Assembly (NCBI GenBank): GCA_046485285.1
Contig: JAWOHE010000015.1
Coordinates: 1-17,328 of the forward strand
DNA length: 17,328 nt
Source: a bacterium
GTDB taxonomy: Bacteria; Hydrothermota; Tepidihabitantia; Tepidihabitantales; Tepidihabitantaceae
Reading direction: 5' to 3'
The position numbers were made by a program, and so were the translations under genes. Positions 4,966 to 16,668 of this stretch are shown in pieces; position 1 is the first letter of the stretch, and each line of letters opens with the position of its first letter. The notes beneath the pieces are model-generated. The model was not told the origin of the DNA, did no database searches, and worked only from the letters and a program-made list of their open reading frames with translations.

Positions 4966-5080
4966 GTCATCTCGACCTGCGGCCGCAAGCCCCCCCGGTC
5001 ATTTCGACCGGAACGCAGCGGAGTGGTGCTGCGTCCCCGCAGTGCGGGCACTCACGTCGAACGTGAAATCTGAAATCCCT
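4966..5080. repeat. REP-like dispersed repeat family (GTCATYTCGACC...GTGG...GAAATC), two copies here; further copies at 5814-5842 and 6558-6585
   Basis: GTCATCTCGACC at 4966; GTCATTTCGACCGGAACGCAGCGGAGTGG at 4998, with GAAATCCCT at 5072; GTCATCTCGACC at 5814; TCATCTCGACCGCAGTGGAGAAATCCCT at 6558. Confidence 0.65.
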
Positions 5081-5097
5081 ATCCGGCCCGTGCGGGC

Positions 5098-5192
5098 CGT
5101 GGTTCAAGGTTCATAGTTCAAAGTTCAGGGTTCATCGTTCCGCGCTCTCCCTTCACCCCTTCCCTCCTCACCCTTCCCCGTCTGCCTTCGTG
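5098..5192 (+). repeat. Direct repeat copy 1 (about 95 bp) containing a heptamer array (RGTTCAN)x5-6 and a pyrimidine-rich tract
   Basis: GGTTCAA GGTTCAT AGTTCAA AGTTCAG GGTTCAT CGTTC...CCCTCCTCACCCTTCCCC; a near-identical copy lies at 6593-6694. Confidence 0.9.
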
Positions 5193-5259
5193 TCGAAGAC
5201 CCTCTCCGGCCCGTGCCTTCGTGTTCAACTCCTCTCCGCTTGCCCGGCCCTTTCCCGGC

Positions 5260-6507: not shown

Positions 6508-6592
6508 GCTGTTCATGCGGGGGCTGACCCGACCGCGCCCCGGCCTCCCCCCGCCCATCATCTCGACCGCAGTGGAGAAATCCCTCTCCGGT

Positions 6593-6694
6593 CGTGGTTC
6601 AAGGTTCATAGTTCAAAGTTCATAGTTCAGGGTTCATCGTTCAGCGCTCTACCTTCGTCACTTCCCTCCTCACCCTTCCCCATCTGCCCTCGTG
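6593..6694 (+). repeat. Direct repeat copy 2 of 5098-5192, with one extra heptamer
   Basis: GGTTCAA GGTTCAT AGTTCAA AGTTCAT AGTTCAG GGTTCAT CGTTC...CTTCCCTCCTCACCCTTCCCCATCTGCCCTCGTG. Confidence 0.9.
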
Positions 6695-6804
6695 CCTGAC
6701 TCCGCCCTCCACACCCTGCAATCCGGCATCTGCAATCCCGCCCGCGTTTCCTCTTTGCCTGACGTCTCTTTCTCCCGCGGCACAATGACCGGCATGAATA
6801 CGAC

Positions 6805-6859
6805 GCCCGGGCCGGGGTTGACGAGGCGGGGAGTTAAGTACTATGTCCCCGGAATCCCC
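6805..6859 (+). repeat. 55-bp direct repeat, left of the ORF6N gene
   Basis: GCCCGGGCCGGGGTTGACGAGGCGGGGAGTTAAGTACTATGTCCCCGGAATCCCC; 2 mismatches to 7555-7609. Confidence 0.95.
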
Positions 6860-6884
6860 CGGGACGCGGAGAAAGAGGAGAACA

Positions 6885-7502: not shown

Positions 7503-7554
7503 CAGCCTGAGGATATCGGTTAGAAGTATGTCGTGAGGAAAGATGCGTCCAGAT

Positions 7555-7609
7555 GCCCGGGCCGGGATTGACGAAGCGGGGAGTTAAGTACTATGTCCCC
7601 GGAATCCCC
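7555..7609 (+). repeat. 55-bp direct repeat, right of the ORF6N gene, followed by a TCCCCGGAA duplication
   Basis: GCCCGGGCCGGGATTGACGAAGCGGGGAGTTAAGTACTATGTCCCCGGAATCCCC, exactly 750 nt from copy 1. Confidence 0.95.
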
Positions 7610-7632
7610 GGAATCCCGCGCAGCCGTCCTCA

Positions 7633-9219
7633 TCACGACCCGTGCCGACGGTGCCACTCCTTCCAGAGCCGGCCCCGGCAGCCCTCCAGCGCCCGGTGGC
7701 TGCCGATCTGCTCCAGCTCCGTCTGCAGCCCCGTGATAGCGGCCTCCCCGGGGCGCAGCCGCCGGGTGCCGCGATGCCGCTCATACCAGTCTACGGCCCG
7801 GTTCAGCAGCACCAGCTCCTTCGCGGTCCACCTGGTCTTGGGCCAGCGCTCGCCGAGGCCGTGGGCCAGCTTCCGCACGCGGTCCCGGACGGCAATCCGG
7901 GTCCGGGCGGCCCGGTCGCGGTCCTGGACCGACCCCGGCTTCTCGGAATCGGGTTTGAACAGCTCCTCGTAACAGGCATCACCGGCTTCGTTCGCGGTAG
8001 GGTAGCGCCCGCTGACTACGCCCCGCGCATACTTCTGCAGCGTCCGGTCCTGCCGGGCGGTCCAGCGCGGGTTGACGGTACGTCCGGCCTTTTGCGACAT
8101 GATGCACAGGTAGCTCCGCAGCGTCACAAGGGTGCGCTCGCGGTACGACTTGCGCCGCGCCGGGTCGCTCCGGTTCAGCCGCGCGTGCAGTTCCCGCAGC
8201 TCTCGATGGCAGTCCCGCGCAACCTGCCGTAGCGTGGGCGGGTTCGGCCGGACCAGCCGGCGGACGTGGCGGTCCAGTATTCGCTTCTCTCCGGGGAGCC
8301 AGAGCCGGGCGCGCCACGACCAGCCCAGCCCGCCGGCCCGCTGGGACAACTGGTCGCGGAGCGACTTCAGGTCGCGCGCCGGCGGAATGCTCTGCCCACG
8401 GCACCTGCTGCGCCGTCGGTCCAGGTCGTGGCGGCAGTCCCGGGCTGCGACGATCGGGTCCCGGTATCGGCCCTGCACCAGCGCCTGCACGTAATCGTCA
8501 ATGATGGCCTGTTCCCAATCCTTGTACCGGGTTCGCCAAGCCGGCCGCCCTGCAGCGTGAGCCAGCCTCCACAGCCGTTCGCTGACGGCCTTGAGCGTAC
8601 GCGGCCGGGCCGGGGCGAGTGCACCGGGTTGCTGCCGGTTCAGCCGCGCGAGTTCCCTGGCACAAGCGGTGGCTGCCTCTTCGGAATTACGGAAACGGCC
8701 GTCCAGCAACCCCTGCGCGAACCGCTCGGCGACGCTCGTCTCTTCCGGGCTCCACCGGGTACGGTGACCGTGATGGCGAGACCCCGCGGTTCGCCGAGCG
8801 ATGGCGTGGTCCACCACCTCGATGTTCCGTGGTCCTCCGGGCGGTCGTGCCGACTCGGGCAGTCGCTCAAACCGTTCCAGACAGACACGCGCAACGCTGA
8901 GGACCGACTCGTATCGTCCTGCGGCGAACTCCCGGGCACAGCGGTCCATGACTCGTTCCTCGGCGGCGGTCCAGGGCCTGTGGCCACGACGTCCGGCCTC
9001 CCTCAGCCGGGCGTACAGACGCTTGTGGACGGCATGCTCGGTCCGGATGAAGCCCGGGCGACGCTTCAGCTCCCGATAGCAGCGGGACGCGGCCTCGCGG
9101 GCCGAGTCGAACCTGCCCGACAGCACCTGCTGCACGTACCGCTCCAGCACCCGGCTCTCAGCAGGCGACCAGGGAGCGGACGCGGCCCGGCGCCTGTCCG
9201 CCATCGGCCTACGGCTCAC
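7633..9219 (-). CDS. Arg-rich hypothetical protein with seven Myb/SANT-like helix-turn-helix repeats (start may be ATG 9204)
   Basis: Repeats begin WSPAESRVL, WTAAEERVM, WSPEETSVA, YKDWEQAII, WLPGEKRIL, WTARQDRTL and WTAKELVLL; most continue G(R)(F/Y)...A..C..EL...RT..AV..RL. Confidence 0.75.
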   Translation of the reverse strand: MSRRPMADRRRAASAPWSPAESRVLERYVQQVLSGRFDSAREAASRCYRELKRRPGFIRTEHAVHKRLYARLREAGRRGHRPWTAAEERVMDRCAREFAAGRYESVLSVARVCLERFERLPESARPPGGPRNIEVVDHAIARRTAGSRHHGHRTRWSPEETSVAERFAQGLLDGRFRNSEEAATACARELARLNRQQPGALAPARPRTLKAVSERLWRLAHAAGRPAWRTRYKDWEQAIIDDYVQALVQGRYRDPIVAARDCRHDLDRRRSRCRGQSIPPARDLKSLRDQLSQRAGGLGWSWRARLWLPGEKRILDRHVRRLVRPNPPTLRQVARDCHRELRELHARLNRSDPARRKSYRERTLVTLRSYLCIMSQKAGRTVNPRWTARQDRTLQKYARGVVSGRYPTANEAGDACYEELFKPDSEKPGSVQDRDRAARTRIAVRDRVRKLAHGLGERWPKTRWTAKELVLLNRAVDWYERHRGTRRLRPGEAAITGLQTELEQIGSHRALEGCRGRLWKEWHRRHGS

Positions 9220-9229
9220 GGCTGACGGC
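9200..9229 (-). repeat. Heptamer array (3' arm) overlapping the stop codon of four-helix-bundle gene B
   Basis: Minus strand GCCGTCA GCCGTGA GCCGTAG GCCGATG GC. Confidence 0.85.
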
Positions 9230-9568
9230 TCCGTACAGCCTCGCCAGCATCTTCTTCACGCTCTCGTACTTGCCGTCGAGCTTCTGATGCTCGGCGTCGG
9301 TGATGTAGCCCAGTGACCGCGAGAGGTGCAGTTGGTAGCGGACTTCTTCACACGACCCCACCGCGACGTTGACGAACTGGGCGAACCCCTTCGCTCCGGC
9401 TCTGGCTGCACCTTCCGCCAGGTTCATCGGTATGGACGCCGCCGCCCGACGCATCTGCCCGGTCAGCCCGAACATCTCCGACTTGGGGAACCTGGCTGTG
9501 ACGCGGTACACGTCCGGCACAAGCTGGTCCGCCAACTGGAACACCTCGTACTTCCTGACGTCTCTCAT
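9209..9568 (-). CDS. Four-helix-bundle protein (23S rRNA intervening-sequence protein / Avd-like family), copy B
   Basis: YEVFQLADQLV..VYRVT..FPKSEMFGLTGQMRRAAASIPMNLAEG...F..F...A.GS..E..YQL family pattern; GAGGAG RBS upstream. Confidence 0.95.
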   Translation of the reverse strand: MRDVRKYEVFQLADQLVPDVYRVTARFPKSEMFGLTGQMRRAAASIPMNLAEGAARAGAKGFAQFVNVAVGSCEEVRYQLHLSRSLGYITDAEHQKLDGKYESVKKMLARLYGAVSREP

Positions 9569-9579
9569 CGGCTCCTCGT

Positions 9580-9609
9580 GCCGTAAGCTGTCAGCGGCAA
9601 GCTGCTAGC
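9580..9609 (-). repeat. Heptamer array (5' arm) upstream of four-helix-bundle gene B, complementary to 9200-9229
   Basis: Minus strand GCTAGCA GCTTGCC GCTGACA GCTTACG GC. Confidence 0.8.
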
Positions 9610-9621
9610 CCTCCATGTCGC

Positions 9622-9702
9622 ACCCTTGGCCTTCGGCAGTTTTTTGTGCAGAGCCTGCCCTGAGCTTGTCGAAGGGTCCAGCATCCGCTCGACCAACTTC
9701 AC
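9622..9702 (-). pseudogene. Relic fragment of a Type IIG RM C-terminus (copy 3)
   Basis: Translates VKLVERMLD[PSTSSGQA]LHKKLPKAKG, versus VELVERMLELHKRLPKAKG at the end of the intact RM gene. Confidence 0.85.
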
Positions 9703-9977
9703 GCCTGCGCCGGTATCTGTGGCCGCCGCTTGTACTGCCCGCACCGGGCCTGCCAGGCATAGTAGCTTGAGCGCCGAACCCGCAGCAAGCGGCAGAGCCT
9801 CTGCACCGGCAGACGGTTTGACCCGAAGGCCACGAGGCGGAAACGCTGGTCGTAGGTGGCGCGGGTGATGACACTGGCGTCGACGAGGCGCTCGACCTCG
9901 CGGCTGAGAACAGCGTTCTCCTGCCTCAGCCGTTCATTCTCCTGCCGGAACCTGGCGTCGCTGGGCTTCCTGCGCAT
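9699..9977 (-). mobile_element. IS3-family transposase fragment (OrfA coiled-coil end joined to OrfB N-terminus), no catalytic domain
   Basis: ENERLRQENAVL...RFRLV...LPVQRLCRLLRVRRSSYYAWQAR matches the IS3 orfA/orfB junction pattern; no DDE region and no terminal inverted repeats seen. Confidence 0.7.
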
Positions 9978-9987
9978 TCTCGCTCCT

Positions 9988-10188
9988 TTCGACAATCGCA
10001 ACCTCCTCCTCCGTCAATCCATACAACTCATACACCAACTCGTCAATCGTCTTGTCCGTCGCGGCAATCTGGCGCTCAATTGTCGCCTTGGCCGCGCCCT
10101 TGGCCTTGGGCAGTTTCTTGTGCAGAGCCTGCCCTGAGCTTGTCGAAGGGTCCAGCATCCGCTCGGGCAGAAGGACCATCCTGTTGTG
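9988..10188 (-). pseudogene. Relic of a Type IIG RM C-terminus (copy 2; within ORF 9934-10218)
   Basis: HNRMVLLPERMLD[PSTSSGQA]LHKKLPKAKGAAKATIERQIAATDKTIDELVYELYGLTEEEVAIVE, colinear with 12355-12531. Confidence 0.9.
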
Positions 10189-10230
10189 CTGGGTCATGGT
10201 GTCCTCATGGTCACCCAATCACCGTCTGAC

Positions 10231-12327
10231 CTACTCCGGTGCAAAGTGGATTTGCTTGTTGATTCTAGTAAGGGAGCCGCTCAGCACGTTCTTGTGAATC
10301 TGCTCCTCATTATAGCAGCCGATGGCGCTGTTCACCACCTCCGTGGGGATTTGGAGACGGCCTGCTATCCAGCCGCGCTGGCGCCCGAACTCCCGCAGGG
10401 CAGCGAGGCCAAGGAACAGGATAATGTCTGTCAGCTTCCCCGCGAAGGCGTTGACGCACTGTTCCTTCCGTGGGATTAACTCCGACAGTTCACGTGCGGC
10501 CTCGGTCACAGCCTGCTCCACATGTGGGCGCAGGAAGTCGAAGAAGGATACCACAGTTTCCCTGCTCGCTCCGGGCGTCGCGCTCCCATCAAAGTACTTC
10601 AGACCAAGTCCAAAGGGAACGGCGAGGAAGGCCGTCAAGGCACCTTGAATGTCGTCCGTGACGGGAGGAGCGAAAGGCAGGTCATAGAGTGGGTCCGTGC
10701 GCATCCAGTAGTCGGAAACTGGTGCGCTCTTCCGGTAGGCGGCGTACATGGGCAAGAACTCCAGCGCGGTCACGCAGTCATCCAGCCGGAAGCCCGAGGT
10801 CCTCAGTGGCACTGTTGGCTGCACTCCCATCAGGCCAAAACACTCTTCGAGGAGTTCCCATGCGGCGTTTTCGTTTCCCGCTTGCGCCTCCAGGCGTACC
10901 AGTCGGCTCCTAGTGTCGTAGTCACGGGGTTCCGCTGAGAGTTTGCCCTTCCAGAAGACCCTAGCCTGCTCGCTCACGTCGGGCGCTGACTTCACCAACT
11001 CTGCGAAGAGCGCAGACTTCAGCCGGTCGAGCGCCAAGTTCCCAGGCTGATGCGCTAGCCCATCTTCGACGTAACGTAGGGCTTCTATCGGCGAACCGCG
11101 CCTTCTGTGAGCCTCTCCCAGCCAGTACCACATGGATGGCCAGTGCGTTGCCAATTGTGGGTCGGAACCTAGCGCGCGCTCCAACAGCGAGGAGGCTTCC
11201 TCTGGCTTGTCGAAGTCCACGAGAAGACTGATGCCCTTGGACGCGAGTGCCTCCGGAAGGAGCGGGTCGAGTTCAAGTGCTCTATCGAAGCACGCCATCT
11301 CGTTCTCGTGGTCGCCTACTTGGTGATAGGCACTGGCAAGATTCTTCCACACCGTGGGACTCTGGGGTTCTACCTCCAATGCTTCCCGATACTGCTTGAT
11401 GGCTTCGACGTACTCCCCCAGTGCGCTAAGGGTATTCGCCAGATTGTATGGTAGCCGCCACTCGGCTGGGTGCCTCGATTTCAGCAGTTGCTCAAACAGC
11501 TGCTTGGCCTCTGAAACGGCGGCTCTATCGCCGTCTCTAATCCCCCTCTGCGCAAGGATGCAGGCGCGCATCGATCGTACCTGACCGGAATCCCTGAGCT
11601 TCCGAGCTCGGTTTATGCTGGCCAGAGCATCGTCATACTGGTGTAGACAGTACTGCGACCAAGCTAGAGCTTGCCAACCCAAGGAGGACTCCGGCTGATT
11701 GTCGAGGTAGGACTTCGATAACGCGGCGGCGCGGTCAAAGTGGCGGGACTCTATGGCTGCCCACGCTTCACCCAGAACCGCGTCGCTTGGTGCGTCATAT
11801 CCAGTAGGCCTCAGCATGCTGCCGGTACCCGCGGGCATATCAACTCCGAGGTACTTCTTTGCGAGGTCCGGGTGTGCTTCCTCGAGCTGCATGCGTAGCC
11901 ACTCCCGTGAGAAGACGATGAGCTGCCACCCATGCTGTTGCCGAAGTTCTGCTTCCAAATTGTCGACGTCTACCCCACGAGCCTTACGATTAGTGACAAA
12001 CACGAAAGTCGAGAAGCTGTGGCCGCCGTTCTTCAGCTTGAGCGCGTCGCGCCGTAGCTTGGCCTTCCAGTCCTGCTCGAGACTGAACTGAAAGAAGGCG
12101 ACATCGCCATCTCGCCCTCGCCCGCTTCTAGGCGATTCCTCAGCATCGCGTCCCCCGTCCTGCGGCTCAATCGGTACTATGTCCTTGTACCCGTTGCGAA
12201 ACAGCAGGTCAACGCAAAGTCGCTCGAAGTGCTTCCCGTCCAACTCCTGGTCTAGAGTCCAGAGGACTTGACTTGTCACTCGCTGACCCTCACCCGAGAT
12301 GTCCGGCATTCGGTGGACACAATCCAC
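10231..12327 (-). CDS. N-terminal restriction-endonuclease-like (PD-(D/E)XK, Mrr-like) domain + TPR repeat protein; start could be ATG 12309 or GTG 12279
   Basis: FERLCVDLLFRNGY...PQDGGRDA...FFQFS at the N-terminus; multiple TPRs (YNLANTLSALGEYVEAIKQYREALEVEP, WKNLASAYHQVGDHENEMACFDRALELDP); visibly lower GC than the flanks. Confidence 0.82.
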   Translation of the reverse strand: MDCVHRMPDISGEGQRVTSQVLWTLDQELDGKHFERLCVDLLFRNGYKDIVPIEPQDGGRDAEESPRSGRGRDGDVAFFQFSLEQDWKAKLRRDALKLKNGGHSFSTFVFVTNRKARGVDVDNLEAELRQQHGWQLIVFSREWLRMQLEEAHPDLAKKYLGVDMPAGTGSMLRPTGYDAPSDAVLGEAWAAIESRHFDRAAALSKSYLDNQPESSLGWQALAWSQYCLHQYDDALASINRARKLRDSGQVRSMRACILAQRGIRDGDRAAVSEAKQLFEQLLKSRHPAEWRLPYNLANTLSALGEYVEAIKQYREALEVEPQSPTVWKNLASAYHQVGDHENEMACFDRALELDPLLPEALASKGISLLVDFDKPEEASSLLERALGSDPQLATHWPSMWYWLGEAHRRRGSPIEALRYVEDGLAHQPGNLALDRLKSALFAELVKSAPDVSEQARVFWKGKLSAEPRDYDTRSRLVRLEAQAGNENAAWELLEECFGLMGVQPTVPLRTSGFRLDDCVTALEFLPMYAAYRKSAPVSDYWMRTDPLYDLPFAPPVTDDIQGALTAFLAVPFGLGLKYFDGSATPGASRETVVSFFDFLRPHVEQAVTEAARELSELIPRKEQCVNAFAGKLTDIILFLGLAALREFGRQRGWIAGRLQIPTEVVNSAIGCYNEEQIHKNVLSGSLTRINKQIHFAPE

Positions 12328-12336
12328 ATGTGGGGC

Positions 12337-15300
12337 TCATTGCTCGGTCCCGCCTTCTACGGTCCTGACCTCCTCTGCCGTCAGCCCATACAACTCATAC
12401 ACCAGTGCGTCTATGGCCTTGTCCGTCGCGGCAATCTGACGTTCGATGCCGGTCTTCGATTCGCCCTTGGCCTTCGGCAGTCTCTTGTGCAACTCCAGCA
12501 TCCGCTCGACTAGCTCGACCATCCTGTCGTGCCGGGCCTTGTCCTTCTTGTCGGAGAAGTCGATGGTGCGGATAGGAAGCTTCGCCAAGAATTGCCTATT
12601 CGCGGACATCCAACCACCACGAAACGGGGCGCTGATGTGAGGGAAGTACCAAGCCAACAGGCGCGAATTCAGCAACCCGAGTAAGTACAGCAACCCCATA
12701 GAATCGTGGCCGGGTTTGAGGGTAACACCTCCAACATCTACGTTGTCTAAGTAGTGTGATCCGGTTATGTCGACCGTAGCGCGAAGCCGTTCCACTAGTC
12801 GAGGGACACAGATTTTCGCACGACCCTGTATCCCGAGATTTTGGCTACGGCCAAATCGGTACCACCCGGTCCCCCTGAACTTGCCCCCTTCGCGCCTCTC
12901 GAGTCTCTCTTTGTTTTGATCGAGATAGGTCGCCGTCATTGGGAATCTCCTCTTGAGGGCGTCGAACTGCATAAGGGTCGCTGACGGGTCAGCAACCTCG
13001 TAAGGGAAAAGGATATACTGCCGCCAGGGTAACACGCGGTAGCGCCCGATATCTGTTCCGCTCACAAGCGGATGAAGCGCTCCAGGTTCCAGCATTACGT
13101 CTGTCGACAGAGCCTTCGAGTGCAGCCGAACAGCTCCGCTTGTCTTCGCTACGACGTCCAGTATGTACACATCGTCGGCACTGGTCTGGAGGCCGACAAA
13201 GACATCTGCGACCTCTCCCAGCTTCGGGGTCATGCTACGGAGGCTCCCAGCCAGCCTCGCGCCCTTACCGACTGCGAAACTCCATTCTCCTGACAACGAA
13301 GCCTCAGCATCGACAGTTCCCGATTCTGCGGTGCCTTTGGTTAGCCAAGAACCTAAGTCGCCCGGCTTCACCACGCTTACCGAATGGCTGGGAGGTCGAC
13401 CGAGAAACAGCAGGCATGTATAGGTAGTAGCGCCAGAAAAGACCTGTATGTGGCCGAAATGGACTACATGCTTCAGATGCTTGCCATCTACAATGAGAGA
13501 GCGTAATGGTTCACCATACTGCGAGTTGAAGAACTTGTGGGGAAGGATGTAACCGAGGAGCCCGGTCTTGTTCAGGAGGCTGAGCCCTTTCTCTGCGAAC
13601 ACAACGTAGATGTCGTAGTTGCCCTTGGCGGCCGAACGGTAGTGCTTTTTGAAGTAGGGCAGAGATTCGGGCGACCATTCGTTCAGGGCCTGGACGCGAA
13701 TGTACGGCGGGTTGCCGATAACCGCGTCGAAACCGCCTGCCTGTGCGTGTCCGCCCGCAGACAGGCCGGATTTCATTATCTCCGGGAATTCGTGTTCCCA
13801 GTCGAAGGCGTTGATGCGGAGTCGTTCCTCCTCGTCGTCGAACATCGTCTGTTGTTCGCCCTGCCAGAAGTCCGACCCTATCAGGCTGTTACCGCATTTG
13901 ATGTTACTGCTGAGGTCGGGCAAGGCCCGCTCGCGGAACATCTTCTGCTGGAGGCTGATGGTCTGGTCGCTCTCGCCCTCGAGCACCTTGAGCAGAAGGC
14001 TGAGCTTGGTGACTTCGACCGCCTGGGCGTCGATGTCCACGCCGTAAATGTTGTTGAGCAGGATGCGTTTCTTTTCCTGCGTGGTCAGCCGCCACTCCCC
14101 GCCCGGGCCTTCGTAGAGTTCTTTGCGGTGCTTCTCCGGCCCGGCCTTGACGTACTGGTCCCGGTGCCAGTCGAGCAGGTACTGGTACGCGCCGAGCAGG
14201 AACGAACCGGACCCACAGGCCGGGTCGAGGATGCGGAGTCGCGAAGCTCGCGCAGGGGTCAGGGGTCGGGGGGCAGGGGTCGGGGAGTGCGCAGTGCGCG
14301 AATCAGGCCGTTGAGCAGTCTGCCGACGAGTCGCGCCTTCTGCTGCAACTCGGCGGTCTGCGTCGGGCTGAGTATCTGCAGTCGTTCCGCGAGCGTCAGA
14401 TAGGTCTGCAGTTCTGCCAGAGAGCCCCGGCTGATTGAGAGATGATTCAGATAGACCCGGCGGTGGTTGGAACCATGTCCTTCCGCAATGTTCGCAGGTA
14501 TGGAAACGGCCGCTCTGGTCATCTGCGACCGTAGCCCGTACCGCTCGCTTTCGGGCAGCTCCCGGGCCGCGCGGTAGACCAGTTCGACCAGACTCATCGC
14601 TTCCTGCCAGACCCTCAGGTCCTCGTGACTCTGAATCGGTTCCGTCAATGCTCGCCCCTTTCCTCCCCGGACCCTGAACCCTGATCCCTGGTCCCGGGAT
14701 GCTATCGGCAGACGGTATTCCCCGGCATCTCAGACACGTACCGTTGGATTCGGCCGGGTAGCCCCACAGTAATGCTCCGACCGTGTTCTTGACGATGTAG
14801 TCCACGATGTAGGTCGGCGTGTAATAGACCCCGCCCGCCTTGCGGACTTCGGGCTTATCTTCGACCTTGGCCCGGTGACCGGCGGTGAGCCGGATGACCT
14901 TGCCGAGGAACTGCTCATAGACCTGGCCGAGGATGTCGGCCGGAAAGACGCTGAACTCGTACGGGCTCGGGTAGTAGAGCTGGGCGATGACGGTCTTGAG
15001 CACCGCGTCGTCCACTTCGAGGTTCGGGGTGAGGTCGTCCGGCTCCTCGCGGCCGCGCTCGCTGGTGAAGTGGAACAGCCCGGAGTTGTAGCGGTCGTCG
15101 GCCCGGCGGAAGAGCTCGAACAGCCTCGGGTAGACTCGGACGCCGTTGGTGAGCGCCTGCAGGCCGGCGGCCGGCTCGATGCCCCGGTCTTCGCAGATGC
15201 GCAGGAAGATGATGCGGTCGATCGTGCGCTGGACCGCGGCGTTGAGCTCGCGGTCGGTCAGCCGCGGGTTGCGCAGGGCGATGTTGCGGGCGAGGATGTC

Positions 15301-15921
15301 CCGCCAGCGTTCGATGTCCTTGAGGAACTCGGCGTCCACCGGGGTCGTGCCGCGCTTCCTGCCGCTGTCGGAGTAGCGGTCGAACGCGCCCTGCTGGATG
15401 GCCTCGGGCGAGAAGGTGCCGACCAGCTCCTCCCATTCCGCCTCGTAGTCGCGGTAGGGTATCAGCCGCAGGCGGCCCGCCCCGGCCTTGTCGCGCTCGG
15501 TCGGCCGGACCCGGGTGTCATAGACGCTGAACTCCTCGAAGTCGGTGAGGATGGAGACCGGCAGTTTCGCGGTCCAGGCGTAGCGCCGGAGCTGAAACGC
15601 GGGTTTCGGGTCGCGGCCGATGTCGTGGACCGGGGCCTTGGCCTCGACGAAGAACTTGCGCACCCCGCCGATGCGGAAGCAGTAGTCCGGGGCCTTGGTG
15701 GTGCCGCCGACCTTGATGGCGTCCTCGTGGACGACTTCGCGGTAGCGCTGGTCGTAGCCCTTGCGGTTGGCGACGTCCCAGCCCAGCGCCTCGAAGAACG
15801 GGTCGAGGAAGTCTCTTCGGAGCTGAGTCTCGTTATAGGCCGGCGAGTGGTAGGCGCCGAGGTTGCGGTCGAAGGTCTCGACCAGGCGCTTGAGCGTATC
15901 CGGGGCGCGGGTGTCGGCCAT
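12337..15921 (-). CDS. Type IIG (Eco57I-like) restriction-modification enzyme: HsdR_N-like nuclease, N6-adenine methyltransferase, TRD/TaqI-C-like domain; contains a ~166-aa in-frame insert (start ATG 15921 or GTG 15927)
   Basis: PDYCF...FFVEAK nuclease motif, ILGQVYEQFLG, RKAGGVYYTP, motif I ILDPACGSGSFL, NNIYGVDID, IKCGNSL, motif IV GFDAVIGNPPY, YLLGLLNS and IDALVYELYGLT. Confidence 0.95.
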   Translation of the reverse strand: MADTRAPDTLKRLVETFDRNLGAYHSPAYNETQLRRDFLDPFFEALGWDVANRKGYDQRYREVVHEDAIKVGGTTKAPDYCFRIGGVRKFFVEAKAPVHDIGRDPKPAFQLRRYAWTAKLPVSILTDFEEFSVYDTRVRPTERDKAGAGRLRLIPYRDYEAEWEELVGTFSPEAIQQGAFDRYSDSGRKRGTTPVDAEFLKDIERWRDILARNIALRNPRLTDRELNAAVQRTIDRIIFLRICEDRGIEPAAGLQALTNGVRVYPRLFELFRRADDRYNSGLFHFTSERGREEPDDLTPNLEVDDAVLKTVIAQLYYPSPYEFSVFPADILGQVYEQFLGKVIRLTAGHRAKVEDKPEVRKAGGVYYTPTYIVDYIVKNTVGALLWGYPAESNGTCLRCRGIPSADSIPGPGIRVQGPGRKGASIDGTDSESRGPEGLAGSDESGRTGLPRGPGAARKRAVRATVADDQSGRFHTCEHCGRTWFQPPPGLSESSLNQPGLSGRTADLSDARGTTADTQPDADRRVAAEGATRRQTAQRPDSRTAHSPTPAPRPLTPARASRLRILDPACGSGSFLLGAYQYLLDWHRDQYVKAGPEKHRKELYEGPGGEWRLTTQEKKRILLNNIYGVDIDAQAVEVTKLSLLLKVLEGESDQTISLQQKMFRERALPDLSSNIKCGNSLIGSDFWQGEQQTMFDDEEERLRINAFDWEHEFPEIMKSGLSAGGHAQAGGFDAVIGNPPYIRVQALNEWSPESLPYFKKHYRSAAKGNYDIYVVFAEKGLSLLNKTGLLGYILPHKFFNSQYGEPLRSLIVDGKHLKHVVHFGHIQVFSGATTYTCLLFLGRPPSHSVSVVKPGDLGSWLTKGTAESGTVDAEASLSGEWSFAVGKGARLAGSLRSMTPKLGEVADVFVGLQTSADDVYILDVVAKTSGAVRLHSKALSTDVMLEPGALHPLVSGTDIGRYRVLPWRQYILFPYEVADPSATLMQFDALKRRFPMTATYLDQNKERLERREGGKFRGTGWYRFGRSQNLGIQGRAKICVPRLVERLRATVDITGSHYLDNVDVGGVTLKPGHDSMGLLYLLGLLNSRLLAWYFPHISAPFRGGWMSANRQFLAKLPIRTIDFSDKKDKARHDRMVELVERMLELHKRLPKAKGESKTGIERQIAATDKAIDALVYELYGLTAEEVRTVEGGTEQ
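13735..13766. repeat. 30-nt in-frame palindromic micro-insertion in the RM gene
   Basis: Minus strand GCCTGTCTG...CAGGCAGGC stem; adds LSAGGHAQAG between EIMKSG and GFDAVIGNPPY, with a GGC duplication at the ends. Confidence 0.7.
14254..14287 (-). repeat. Heptamer array (3' arm) overlapping the stop codon of four-helix-bundle gene A
   Basis: Minus strand CT CCCCGAC CCCTGCC CCCCGAC CCCTGAC CCCT. Confidence 0.88.
14259..14648 (-). CDS. Four-helix-bundle protein (23S rRNA IVP / Avd-like family), copy A, nested in the +1 frame inside the RM gene
   Basis: IQSHEDLRVWQEAMSLVELVY...LPESERYGLRSQMTRAAVSIPANIAEG.G...Y..HLSISRGSLAELQTYL full family signature; TTG start with purine-rich RBS GGAGGAAAGGGG upstream. 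Confidence 0.95.
   Translation of the reverse strand: MTEPIQSHEDLRVWQEAMSLVELVYRAARELPESERYGLRSQMTRAAVSIPANIAEGHGSNHRRVYLNHLSISRGSLAELQTYLTLAERLQILSPTQTAELQQKARLVGRLLNGLIRALRTPRPLPPDP
14663..14698 (-). repeat. Heptamer array (5' arm) upstream of four-helix-bundle gene A, complementary to 14254-14287
   Basis: Minus strand CCC GGGACCA GGGATCA GGGTTCA GGGTCCG GGGAG. Confidence 0.88.
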
Positions 15922-15977
15922 CTTCACCGGACCGGGAGCCCGGACGGGCGGCGGGGGCGCTGTTTCATCCTGCGCTC

Positions 15978-16401: not shown

Positions 16402-16668
16402 GGCGCGGGCAGGGCAACAGGAACACCCTCACCCTGACCCTCTCCCTCACACACAAGGGAGAGGGGATGAAACCAGGACGCTGCGATGAGAGCGCGGGCC
16501 GGGCAACCGGAACACCCTCACCCTGACCCTCTCCCTTACACACAAGGGAGAGGGAATGAAACCGGGATGCTGCGATGAGGGCGCGGGCAGGGCAACAGGA
16601 ACACCCTCACCCTGACCCTCTCCCTTACACACAAGGGAGCGGGGATGAAACCAGGATGCTGCGATGAG
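16402..16668. repeat. Three tandem 89-bp repeats, each with a REP-like hairpin (CCCTCACCCTGACCCTCTCCC...GGGAGAGGG)
   Basis: Units 16402-16490, 16491-16579 and 16580-16668 are nearly identical along their whole length. Confidence 0.95.

Follow-up and report, generated by a model that had tools for sequence, protein, structure and literature searches.

Complementary heptamer arms around IVP genes in a Hydrothermota genome and in many other bacterial phyla

Proteins of the IVP family (PF05635/TIGR02436) are known chiefly as products of open reading frames (ORFs) in ribosomal RNA intervening sequences (IVSs) and as relatives of Avd, a protein of diversity-generating retroelements (DGRs). To our knowledge, no function has been assigned to this very large family. 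Leptospira reportedly carries an ORF-bearing IVS as well, an account relayed second-hand in the work on Coxiella. Here, we describe two IVP genes, A and B, on contig JAWOHE010000015.1 of a Hydrothermota bacterium, each enclosed by a pair of complementary arrays of degenerate heptamers, which we call arms; a gene with its two arms is referred to as a cassette. The window analyzed is the entire 17.3-kb contig, and the genome to which it belongs comprises 2.34 Mb with 69% G+C and is 88% complete.

The closest described system is the IVS of the Coxiella burnetii 23S rRNA, in which inverted repeats form a 28-bp terminal stem that loops out the S23p ORF (PMC4990558). The 5' part of this stem contains tandem GACAGAT heptamers (two to three copies and one degenerate unit) immediately ahead of the S23p start, the number of units differs between strains, RNase III cuts the heptamer-containing stem in vitro with mapped ends, and the ORF itself is argued to be decaying (PMC4990558). 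Among the open-access full-text literature that we found, heptamers had been linked with an IVP gene only for this 23S rRNA. The related protein Avd is a pentamer that, according to cryo-electron microscopy, uses flipped-out bases to grip RNA stem-loops; the functional RNA further depends on a long-range duplex in which the 3' end of avd pairs with the spacer (bioRxiv 10.1101/2023.10.23.563531). Further IVP genes have been recorded in cas loci and within rRNA insertions of candidate phyla radiation (CPR) bacteria (PMC3936711; bioRxiv 10.1101/2024.02.27.582315), and alr0549 of Nostoc PCC 7120 bears the name of a four-helix-bundle protein (PMC8491059).

Heptamer repeats have a literature of their own. 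They are reported as the commonest long simple repeats in many bacteria (PMC4679880), and dispersed arrays have been described as cyanobacterial short tandemly repeated repetitive (STRR) sequences, as GGGAATC in Xanthomonas (PMC4692102), as fourfold GGACCGG in Geobacter metallireducens (PMC2700814) and as TAACTGA in Beggiatoaceae (PMC4679880). The reported arrays consist of about four 7-nt units and lie between and inside genes, often as convergent pairs (70 pairs in X. campestris; 49 four-unit elements in Geobacter). Repeats of GGGAATC fold into quadruplexes in vitro (PMC4692102), and the papers on Nostoc (PMC4692102; for recF/recO, bioRxiv 10.1101/2022.06.06.494920), Geobacter and Beggiatoaceae postulate an as yet unidentified partner of the arrays. 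The passages on heptamer arrays in these papers do not mention IVP genes.

Two IVP cassettes with complementary arms

Both genes lie on the minus strand, gene A at positions 14259–14648 (129 aa, TTG start) and gene B at 9209–9568 (119 aa, ATG start). They belong to PF05635 (gene A: E 1.3e-35, 122.3 bits, model positions 1–106; gene B: E 7.9e-34, 116.5 bits, model positions 2–105; cut-off 33.8) and to TIGR02436 (E 1.6e-33 with 115.2 bits, and E 3e-31 with 107.8 bits, respectively; cut-off 24), matching the full models above the curated cut-offs. The encoded proteins are basic, with pI values of 9.8 (A) and 9.5 (B). By sequence, the gene A protein matches PDB entry 2gsc (XCC0516; E 3.1e-23); this structure and a second solved relative, 2rld, contain five chains per deposited entry, and the IVP proteins of the window are probably pentameric.

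The arms of gene A lie at 14663–14695 (5' arm; four GGGNNCN heptamers followed by GGGAG) and at 14254–14287 (3' arm; C-rich heptamers), both on the minus strand and each recovered as an exact string, as an inverted repeat and as a period-7 repeat by Tandem Repeats Finder (TRF; 14672–14695 and 14253–14285, respectively). The arms of gene B, also on the minus strand, were recovered as exact strings at 9580–9609 (5' arm; four GCTNNCN heptamers followed by GC) and 9200–9229 (3' arm; GCCGNNN heptamers), with a TRF call of period 7 for the 3' arm (9211–9231) and none for the 5' arm. TRF detects period 7 at three of the four arms, while four units are visible on reading in all of them, and each of the four strings occurs once in the window.

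The two arms of gene A form the longest inverted repeat within 9000–15000, with 33 nt at 76% complementarity and 375 nt between the copies. The arm pair of gene B is not among the 25 longest of the 87 inverted pairs in this region; counted by hand, 20 of its 30 positions match. For duplex prediction we used stretches shifted by 2–5 nt from the exact strings (14663–14697 with 14253–14287 for A; 9582–9611 with 9205–9234 for B). The RNA duplex of the A arms reaches -46.8 kcal/mol, a value that none of 200 shuffled 3' arms equals, and that of the B arms reaches -34.0 kcal/mol, equaled by one of 200 shuffled partners. When the arms were swapped, the 5' arm of A gave -30.0 kcal/mol with the 3' arm of B (3 of 200 shuffles equally good), and the 5' arm of B gave -10.0 kcal/mol with the 3' arm of A (167 of 200). 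In the minimum free energy and centroid folds of both cassettes the arms are paired and the ORF is looped out; as in an IVS, inverted repeats are predicted to pair around an IVP ORF.

The arms also stand in a fixed relation to the signals for translation. The ribosome-binding site of gene A (GGAGG) overlaps the final unit of the 5' arm, and that of gene B (GAGGAG) lies 4 nt downstream of it. Both stop codons, TGA for gene A and TAG for gene B, fall within the 3' arm, which encodes the last residues of the gene A protein and, at gene B, also contains the ATG (9204) of the next ORF. A consensus scan found neither a sigma-70-like promoter, which may not be the promoter type of this phylum, nor a terminator-like site in either cassette. 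The preliminary description of this DNA had reported the four arm strings at these genes, four heptamers in each, a ribosome-binding site at or just inside the 5' arm, a stop codon inside the 3' arm and arms able to pair around the ORF; each of these statements is borne out by the data above. It had also described IVP and Avd proteins as pentameric and positively charged, which the five chains per entry of the solved relatives and the basic pI of both window proteins support.

In this genome, five genes exceed the PF05635 cut-off; each of them has an array on either side, and four different motifs occur among them. Avd resembles the proteins of the window as a homologous, basic and pentameric four-helix-bundle protein, accompanied by a functional RNA with a long-range duplex at the 3' end of its gene. 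The difference is that genes A and B score below the cut-offs of the Avd models (36.9 and 23.0 bits against 80 for NF033474; 39.7 and 24.8 bits against 40 for PF22296), that a scan of 20 window ORFs turned up no reverse transcriptase family, and that a repeat search of 9000–15000 revealed no template/variable repeat pair beside either gene. Elsewhere in the genome, contig C15 (247–5200; loci L006 and L002) contains a YMDD-motif ORF (1401–2534), an FGE-sulfatase-like kinase gene whose C-terminal end holds a repeat pair, and an A-rich copy of the repeat downstream of avd; judging from these features, this locus is a probable DGR and its PF05635 gene an Avd. This Avd-like gene, which is the weak sixth PF05635 match of the genome (2796–3146, 29 bits), has an array upstream only, with period 8 (AATCTGN) and no 3' partner.

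Arms around IVP genes in many phyla

To see how far this arrangement extends, we surveyed 115 IVP loci: five from this genome, 30 from its phylum and 80 from about ten phyla (Planctomycetota, Acidobacteriota, Proteobacteria, Cyanobacteria, Chloroflexota, Actinomycetota, Bacteroidota and others). The phylum loci stem from a Pfam search of 151 phylum genomes, 81 of which carry the IVP family, and the wider set, spanning 27–67% G+C, was found in a species-genome collection with gene A as the query. Over all loci, the best 21-nt self-match at a lag of 7 nt averages 16.0 in both flanks, compared with 9.2–10.6 at the other lags from 4 to 12 and about 9 in the ORF interior. We counted a flank as an array if this self-match reached 15/21 and applied the threshold to the 112 loci with complete flanks. 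Arrays of period 7 are present on both sides of the gene at 75 loci and on at least one side at 101, whereas control stretches 420–650 nt away reach the threshold in only 11 of 212 cases. The 11 loci that fall below it on both sides include several with period-8 arrays instead. We report this match-anchored count because a stricter window anchored at the ORF stop (both arms at 68 of 114 loci) missed arms where the ORF runs through the 3' arm. The arms have a median length of 4.4 units and a mode of 4. The heptamer-arm architecture is real and general around IVP genes in many bacterial phyla.

Since repeat arrays lack a fixed alignment register, alignment-based covariation was replaced by a comparison of cognate with non-cognate arm pairs. 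A 5' arm matches the reverse complement of its own 3' arm at a median of 20 of 28 positions, as opposed to 13 for non-cognate pairs, and 61 of the 112 cognate pairs exceed the 95th percentile of the non-cognates. Cognate duplexes average -37.4 kcal/mol versus -19.6 kcal/mol for non-cognate ones, and 73 of 75 cognate duplexes have a z-score below -2 relative to shuffled partners. The duplexes average 21.6 bp, which corresponds to about two helical turns. Within them, an unpaired base is repeated 7 nt further on with a probability of 0.37, compared with 0.05–0.14 at other lags; the periodic mismatch is therefore a trait of the family. The preliminary description had noted mismatches recurring every 7 nt and a complementarity that is kept while the motif changes, and it had suggested testing the flanks of many IVP genes for 7-nt periodicity and for complementarity beyond shuffled controls; on all of these points the survey bears it out.

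The arms evolve together with the protein that they enclose. Motif similarity tracks protein identity (Spearman 0.39): a motif is shared by 87% of protein pairs at 70% identity or above, by 37% at 55–70% and by at most 5% below 45%. Cassettes L008 and L025 occupy the same cas1-cas2 spacer and encode IVPs that are about 60% identical; their motifs are unrelated, and each motif is paired with a complement of its own. In orthologous cassettes of one genus (a reading of three loci), the core AGGT is kept and variation is confined to the remaining positions of the unit. The ratio dN/dS lies between 0.04 and 0.22 in 11 of 13 IVP pairs, the other two being saturated, and purifying selection acts on the IVP proteins. 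The arms belong to the cassette as something inherited and selected and are not local sequence.

Host genes, neighborhoods and solitary arrays

Gene A is inserted in a gene for a restriction-modification fusion protein of 1196 aa (12337–15927, minus strand; Pfam HSDR_N, MmeI/Eco57I methylase and TaqI_C), between the YYTP and DPACGSG motifs of the host. Alignment delimits the whole insertion to 14260–14766 on the minus strand, i.e., a leader of about 70 nt, the 5' arm, gene A and the 3' arm; its 507 nt take the place of 9 nt in the orthologue, and in a three-frame translation the insertion is in frame and free of stops. Three homologues of the host gene are uninterrupted at the site, one of them 86% identical in the N-terminal part, and the orthologue in G120:C13 is continuous. 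No target-site duplication is evident at the host-gene junction. The -1 frame of genes in this genome is open over 169 codons in 31% of windows, and it is open in 9 of 60 G+C-rich cassettes. With a chance of one third each for the entry frame and for the length, we estimate from this single case that an open in-frame insertion would arise by chance with a probability of about 2–3%.

Gene B is located between a gene fragment and another ORF. Its cassette starts directly after the 'LPKAKG' codons of a truncated copy of a restriction-modification gene tail (9619–9691, minus strand), which is 96% identical to 10093–10165 and forms a direct repeat with it. The region 9600–10220 is a mosaic of gene fragments. 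Both of its restriction-modification tail copies contain a 27-nt in-frame insert ('DPSTSSGQA') at 9649–9675 and 10123–10149; this insert, which looks like a tiny in-frame mobile element, is absent from the paralogous tail at 12494 and has a third copy on contig C51. A short ORF at 9699–10001 (minus strand), with a leucine-zipper-like stretch followed by '...RRSSYYAW', has no Pfam match at E 0.01 and reads like the N-terminal part of an IS3-family transposase. Further away, a tandem repeat with an 89-nt unit (16403–16668; 3.0 copies, 93% matches) contains CACCCT hexamer runs, and a repeat of about 50 nt ('...GGGTTGACGAGGCGGGGAGTTAAGTACTATGTCCCCGGAATCCCC...') stands at 6805–6860 before an ORF6N-domain gene and at 7553–7610 before the next region, where it may be a shared promoter or operator.

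Across the loci of the survey, the neighbors of a cassette mostly share its orientation (64 versus 8 upstream and 56 versus 12 downstream, among callable flanks). Cassettes occupy the cas1-cas2 spacer (four loci), positions between rml genes (three) and positions between hdrA-like and mvhD genes (two), and three follow directly after tRNA genes, namely the one on contig C65, after five tRNAs, and L017 and L027, after tRNA-Pro. On reading the flanks of the phylum loci, the arms often form the tail or head of a neighboring protein. Similar proteins with similar arms occur in different phyla, for example at L086 and L117. The C65 cassette (2350–2950; L005) lies within a few bases of its five-tRNA cluster, and a 16-nt duplicate of the tRNA-Lys 3' end is found about 60 nt past its 3' arm, as at the borders of integrated elements. 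At L018 (G129:C4), a motif of about 30 nt ('...CCCTGACTTAAAAGGGAT...') is repeated before and after an IVP cassette, along with a copy of the 5' arm; this cassette may be an insertion in a CRISPR-like array.

Heptamer arrays also exist apart from IVP genes. Two solitary GGTTCAN arrays, found by TRF, pattern search and alignment, lie on the plus strand of the window at 5101–5140 (about 5 units) and 6597–6643 (about 6 units), with no IVP gene beside the former; the latter has the same orientation and shares its motif with the arms of an IVP cassette on contig C72. Each forms part of a repeated element about 130 nt long (5030–5200 and 6560–6700), which starts with a hairpin-like motif present in dozens of genome copies ('CATCTCGACC...GGAGAAATCC') and continues with 7-nt-periodic C/T-rich sequence. 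The preliminary description, correct on the gene-linked arms, had mentioned neither these solitary arrays nor the in-frame interruption of the host gene by the gene A cassette. The whole genome yields 139 TRF rows of period 7 with at least 3 copies. Its arrays apart from IVP genes include some read in frame inside secretion-signal domains and kinase linkers, as well as back-to-back inverted pairs without an ORF. On contig C62 (21863–28467), four secreted proteins carry an in-frame GATTGCA array in their C-terminal sorting domain, read as 'LNLHSA(I/T)(C/S/I)NLQSAI'.

Whether a cassette motif is dispersed in its own genome depends on the motif. In this genome, GTTCANN forms 21 arrays compared with none for the reversed control and the gene B motif type forms 10 compared with 1 (mostly on one contig), while the gene A motif forms 4 compared with 5. 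CGGTNNT has 27 hits in G012 and 0–2 in four other genomes, and TAGGTNT has 14 hits in G118 and 0–2 elsewhere; GTRAATN has only 2 hits in G002, both of them the cassette. Random 60-kb samples of 28 genomes contain 17 period-7 arrays in 1555 kb, or about 1 per 100 kb. A genome-wide link between arrays and IVP presence is not supported by these samples (5 arrays in 776 kb of 14 IVP-free genomes; 12 in 780 kb of IVP-bearing ones), and the arrays of the IVP-bearing set are confined to 4 of 14 genomes, in a sample that is small and of related genomes.

Readings of the cassette and their meaning

At the level of sequence, the architecture described here is that of ORF-bearing 23S rRNA intervening sequences: an IVP ORF between pairing terminal repeats, with heptamers before the start codon. 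It differs from the known IVSs in that the host is a protein gene in one case and an intergenic spacer in the other, with no rRNA match (Rfam) in the window and hence no insertion in a 23S or 16S rRNA helix; in that the stems carry periodic mismatches; in that the proteins are under purifying selection, as opposed to the decaying Coxiella ORF; and in that no RNase III domain is detectable in this lineage. We regard it as moderately probable that these are IVS-type cassettes with arms under selection for pairing, which would most simply occur in the transcript. We infer action at the level of RNA rather than DNA and binding of the IVP to the arms, and any role in mobility is putative; by analogy with Avd, the arm stem is probably what the IVP recognizes.

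On this reading, each locus is one copy of a compact cassette that is widespread in bacteria. It opens with a 5' array in which a degenerate heptamer is repeated four to five times, continues with the ribosome-binding site and an IVP ORF some 120 codons long, and closes with a complementary 3' array over the stop codon. In the transcript, the arms would form a stem of about 22–30 bp with a mismatch every 7 nt and close off the ORF as an RNA domain. Such a domain would allow the cassette to ride in other transcription units (operon spacers, the ends of tRNA clusters, rRNA, or a protein gene in frame) and to be expressed from the promoters of the host unit. Translation of the IVP would be tied to the opening of the stem, because the ribosome-binding site and the stop codon are covered by it or lie directly beside it. 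Pairing would insulate the insert, form a frame around these two signals of the ORF and plausibly supply the ligand of the protein.

Several observations weigh against this interpretation. The fold energies of the whole cassettes are not better than those of shuffles (z -0.05 and -0.77), and only the arm-against-arm energy is informative. A plain stem leaves unexplained that just 6 of 75 duplexes are free of internal mismatches, and likewise the base bias of the arms, with a G-rich 5' arm in 72 of 75 cassettes and a C-rich 3' arm in 68 of 75. All evidence for complementarity fits pairing in DNA equally well, and the proposed binding of the IVP to its arms is drawn from Avd by analogy. Heptamer arrays also occur without IVP genes, including the two in the window, and the idea that they usually flank such genes was rejected: none of 80 GGGAATC arrays, taken from many taxa, has an IVP ORF within 700 nt, in a search whose profile, as a positive control, recovered 96 of the sequences on which it had been trained. 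Given these solitary arrays and the GGGAATC result, the association runs from the IVP gene to the arms and not from an array to an IVP gene. The sole enzyme shown to act on such a stem is RNase III of the Coxiella study (PMC4990558), and its domain (PF14622, PF00636) was not found in this genome, nor was PF14622 in any of 15 genomes of the same family (several 97–100% complete), in any of 20 genomes of family f16, all of which carry IVP genes with clear arms, or in 52 of the 81 IVP-bearing phylum genomes.

The first of the competing explanations places the function in DNA, with the arrays as terminal inverted repeats or hairpin sites for a trans-acting recombinase or for replication and with RNA pairing as incidental. 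It is an unlikely account, though one with several observations on its side: presence or absence of the insertion at the host gene, similar proteins and arms across phyla (L086 and L117), the tRNA-Lys duplicate flanking the C65 cassette, and solitary arrays that repeat a cassette's motif at other places in its genome. For an insertion sequence or miniature inverted-repeat transposable element (MITE), which would have terminal inverted repeats, a target-site duplication and a transposase in cis or in trans, the picture is mixed: inverted repeats are present, and one cassette, on C65, is flanked by the tRNA-end duplicate. The arms keep a fixed position with respect to ribosome-binding site and stop codon and have a G/C asymmetry that follows the gene strand, which points to the transcript instead; the neighbors lie mostly on the same strand, the host junction shows no evident target-site duplication, and no transposase or recombinase was identified in the cassettes. 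REP-RAYT systems consist of a gene between inverted copies of a short repeat that has further family members scattered over the genome, and for some motifs the IVP cassettes share this trait. They differ in that the flanked gene encodes a PF05635 four-helix bundle and not an HUH (Y1) transposase, and in that dispersal is absent or weak for other motifs.

We consider equally improbable that the arrays act single-stranded as operators, each binding the cognate IVP pentamer with about one unit per subunit, the 3' arm serving as an anti-operator and the dispersed arrays as further targets. Such a regulon would agree with the arm mode of four to five units next to five chains per entry in the solved relatives, with the amplified cognate motifs (CGGTNNT in G012, TAGGTNT in G118, GTTCANN in this genome) and with the partner postulated in the Nostoc, Geobacter and Beggiatoaceae papers. 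It is at odds with the G002 motif, which is found only in the cassette, with the gene A motif, which is no more frequent than its control, with the restriction of arrays to 4 of 14 IVP-bearing genomes in the random samples, with the absence of an IVP gene beside all 80 GGGAATC arrays, and with IVPs of about 60% identity that carry unrelated motifs.

Somewhat more doubtful is a strict IVS, in which RNase III would cut the stem, free a monocistronic IVP RNA and split the flanking host RNA, as in 23S rRNA, where an IVS is excised and the ends are not religated. RNase III does cut the Coxiella heptamer stem in vitro with mapped ends (PMC4990558), the duplexes have a length of about two helical turns, and 29 of the 81 IVP-bearing phylum genomes do have the domain. 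Over the 151 phylum genomes, however, IVP and RNase III presence are unrelated (both in 29, IVP only in 52, RNase III only in 25, neither in 45), and cleavage inside the host gene would ruin its mRNA, although its reading frame has been kept open. We therefore rejected RNase III as a general partner for this lineage, in which its domain was found neither in the genome nor in the family: canonical RNase III cannot be the general partner, it is probably not the partner in this organism, and the arms are maintained without it in arm-bearing lineages where the domain was not found. Within the phylum, the domain is distributed by family in an all-or-none manner (14/14 and 6/6 versus 0/20 and 0/15), near-complete genomes being among those sampled. 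The preliminary description had proposed protein and periodic stem as a unit of RNA processing, autoregulation or mobility and had suggested RNase III cleavage as a test. Gene and arms do behave as one inherited unit in which complementarity is kept, and the three functions are candidates; that no RNase III domain was found in the genome or in its family speaks against the suggested cleavage.

There is little to recommend the view that the G-rich 5' array acts alone, as a Shine-Dalgarno-like landing row for ribosomes or as a quadruplex, and is masked by the 3' array. At least three GG runs occur in 67 of 75 5' arms and at least three AGG, GGA or GAG triplets in 51 of 75, the gene A arm has five GGG tracts, and the GGGAATC repeats mentioned above form quadruplexes in vitro. 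Against this, the canonical quadruplex motif is present in just 24 of 75 5' flanks, for which reason we rejected the G-quadruplex as a common denominator, and the gene B arm, like arms of the type CGTGAAT or GTAACGA, has no GG. That the arms are functionless, being slippage-prone simple repeats or chance matches in G+C-rich DNA, is very improbable: heptamers are indeed common among simple repeats (PMC4679880) and abundant in this genome (the 139 TRF rows), but the lag-7 signal is present in the flanks and not in the controls and holds from 27% to 67% G+C, the two arms change in concert, the background is about 1 array per 100 kb, and the cognate duplex energies contradict it as well.

Beyond the IVS-type reading, a wider proposal would connect the two bodies of literature, and we put it forward tentatively, as something that is probably too far-reaching. 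IVPs may be the missing partners of the dispersed heptamer arrays (STRR, GGGAATC, fourfold GGACCGG, TAACTGA), a pentamer engaging about one unit per subunit, either on a duplex from which one base flips out at every seventh nucleotide or on a single strand. Their first target would be their own cassette, as a self-regulating and self-insulating RNA domain able to live in any transcript without RNase III, and in some genomes they would also act on dispersed cognate arrays. The arms resemble the dispersed arrays in having about four 7-nt units and, as in STRR-type repeats, at least three of them in tandem, and this genome holds many such arrays; they differ in being degenerate at about 2 of 7 positions and tied to gene start and stop. 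As for dispersal through the genome, the picture is mixed: the gene A motif forms 4 arrays compared with 5 for its control, and the gene B type 10 compared with 1, mostly on one contig. If this proposal is true, IVP and arms would constitute a system of a gene with its own repeat, like REP-RAYT, and a free-living ancestor of the Avd-RNA module of DGRs.

For the IVP family, the conserved cis-architecture offers a first concrete candidate ligand, namely the protein's own arms, together with a testable mechanism. The rRNA IVS would be one landing place of a general cassette that is also found in cas, sugar and redox operons, in tRNA clusters and, in frame, in a restriction-modification gene, and whose architecture is retained by lineages in which we detected no RNase III domain. 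The heptamers tie the cassette to the long-noted, unexplained excess of 7-nt repeats in bacteria. In genome annotation, the arms may serve as a simple signature by which to spot such cassettes and the interrupted, possibly still translatable genes that host them.

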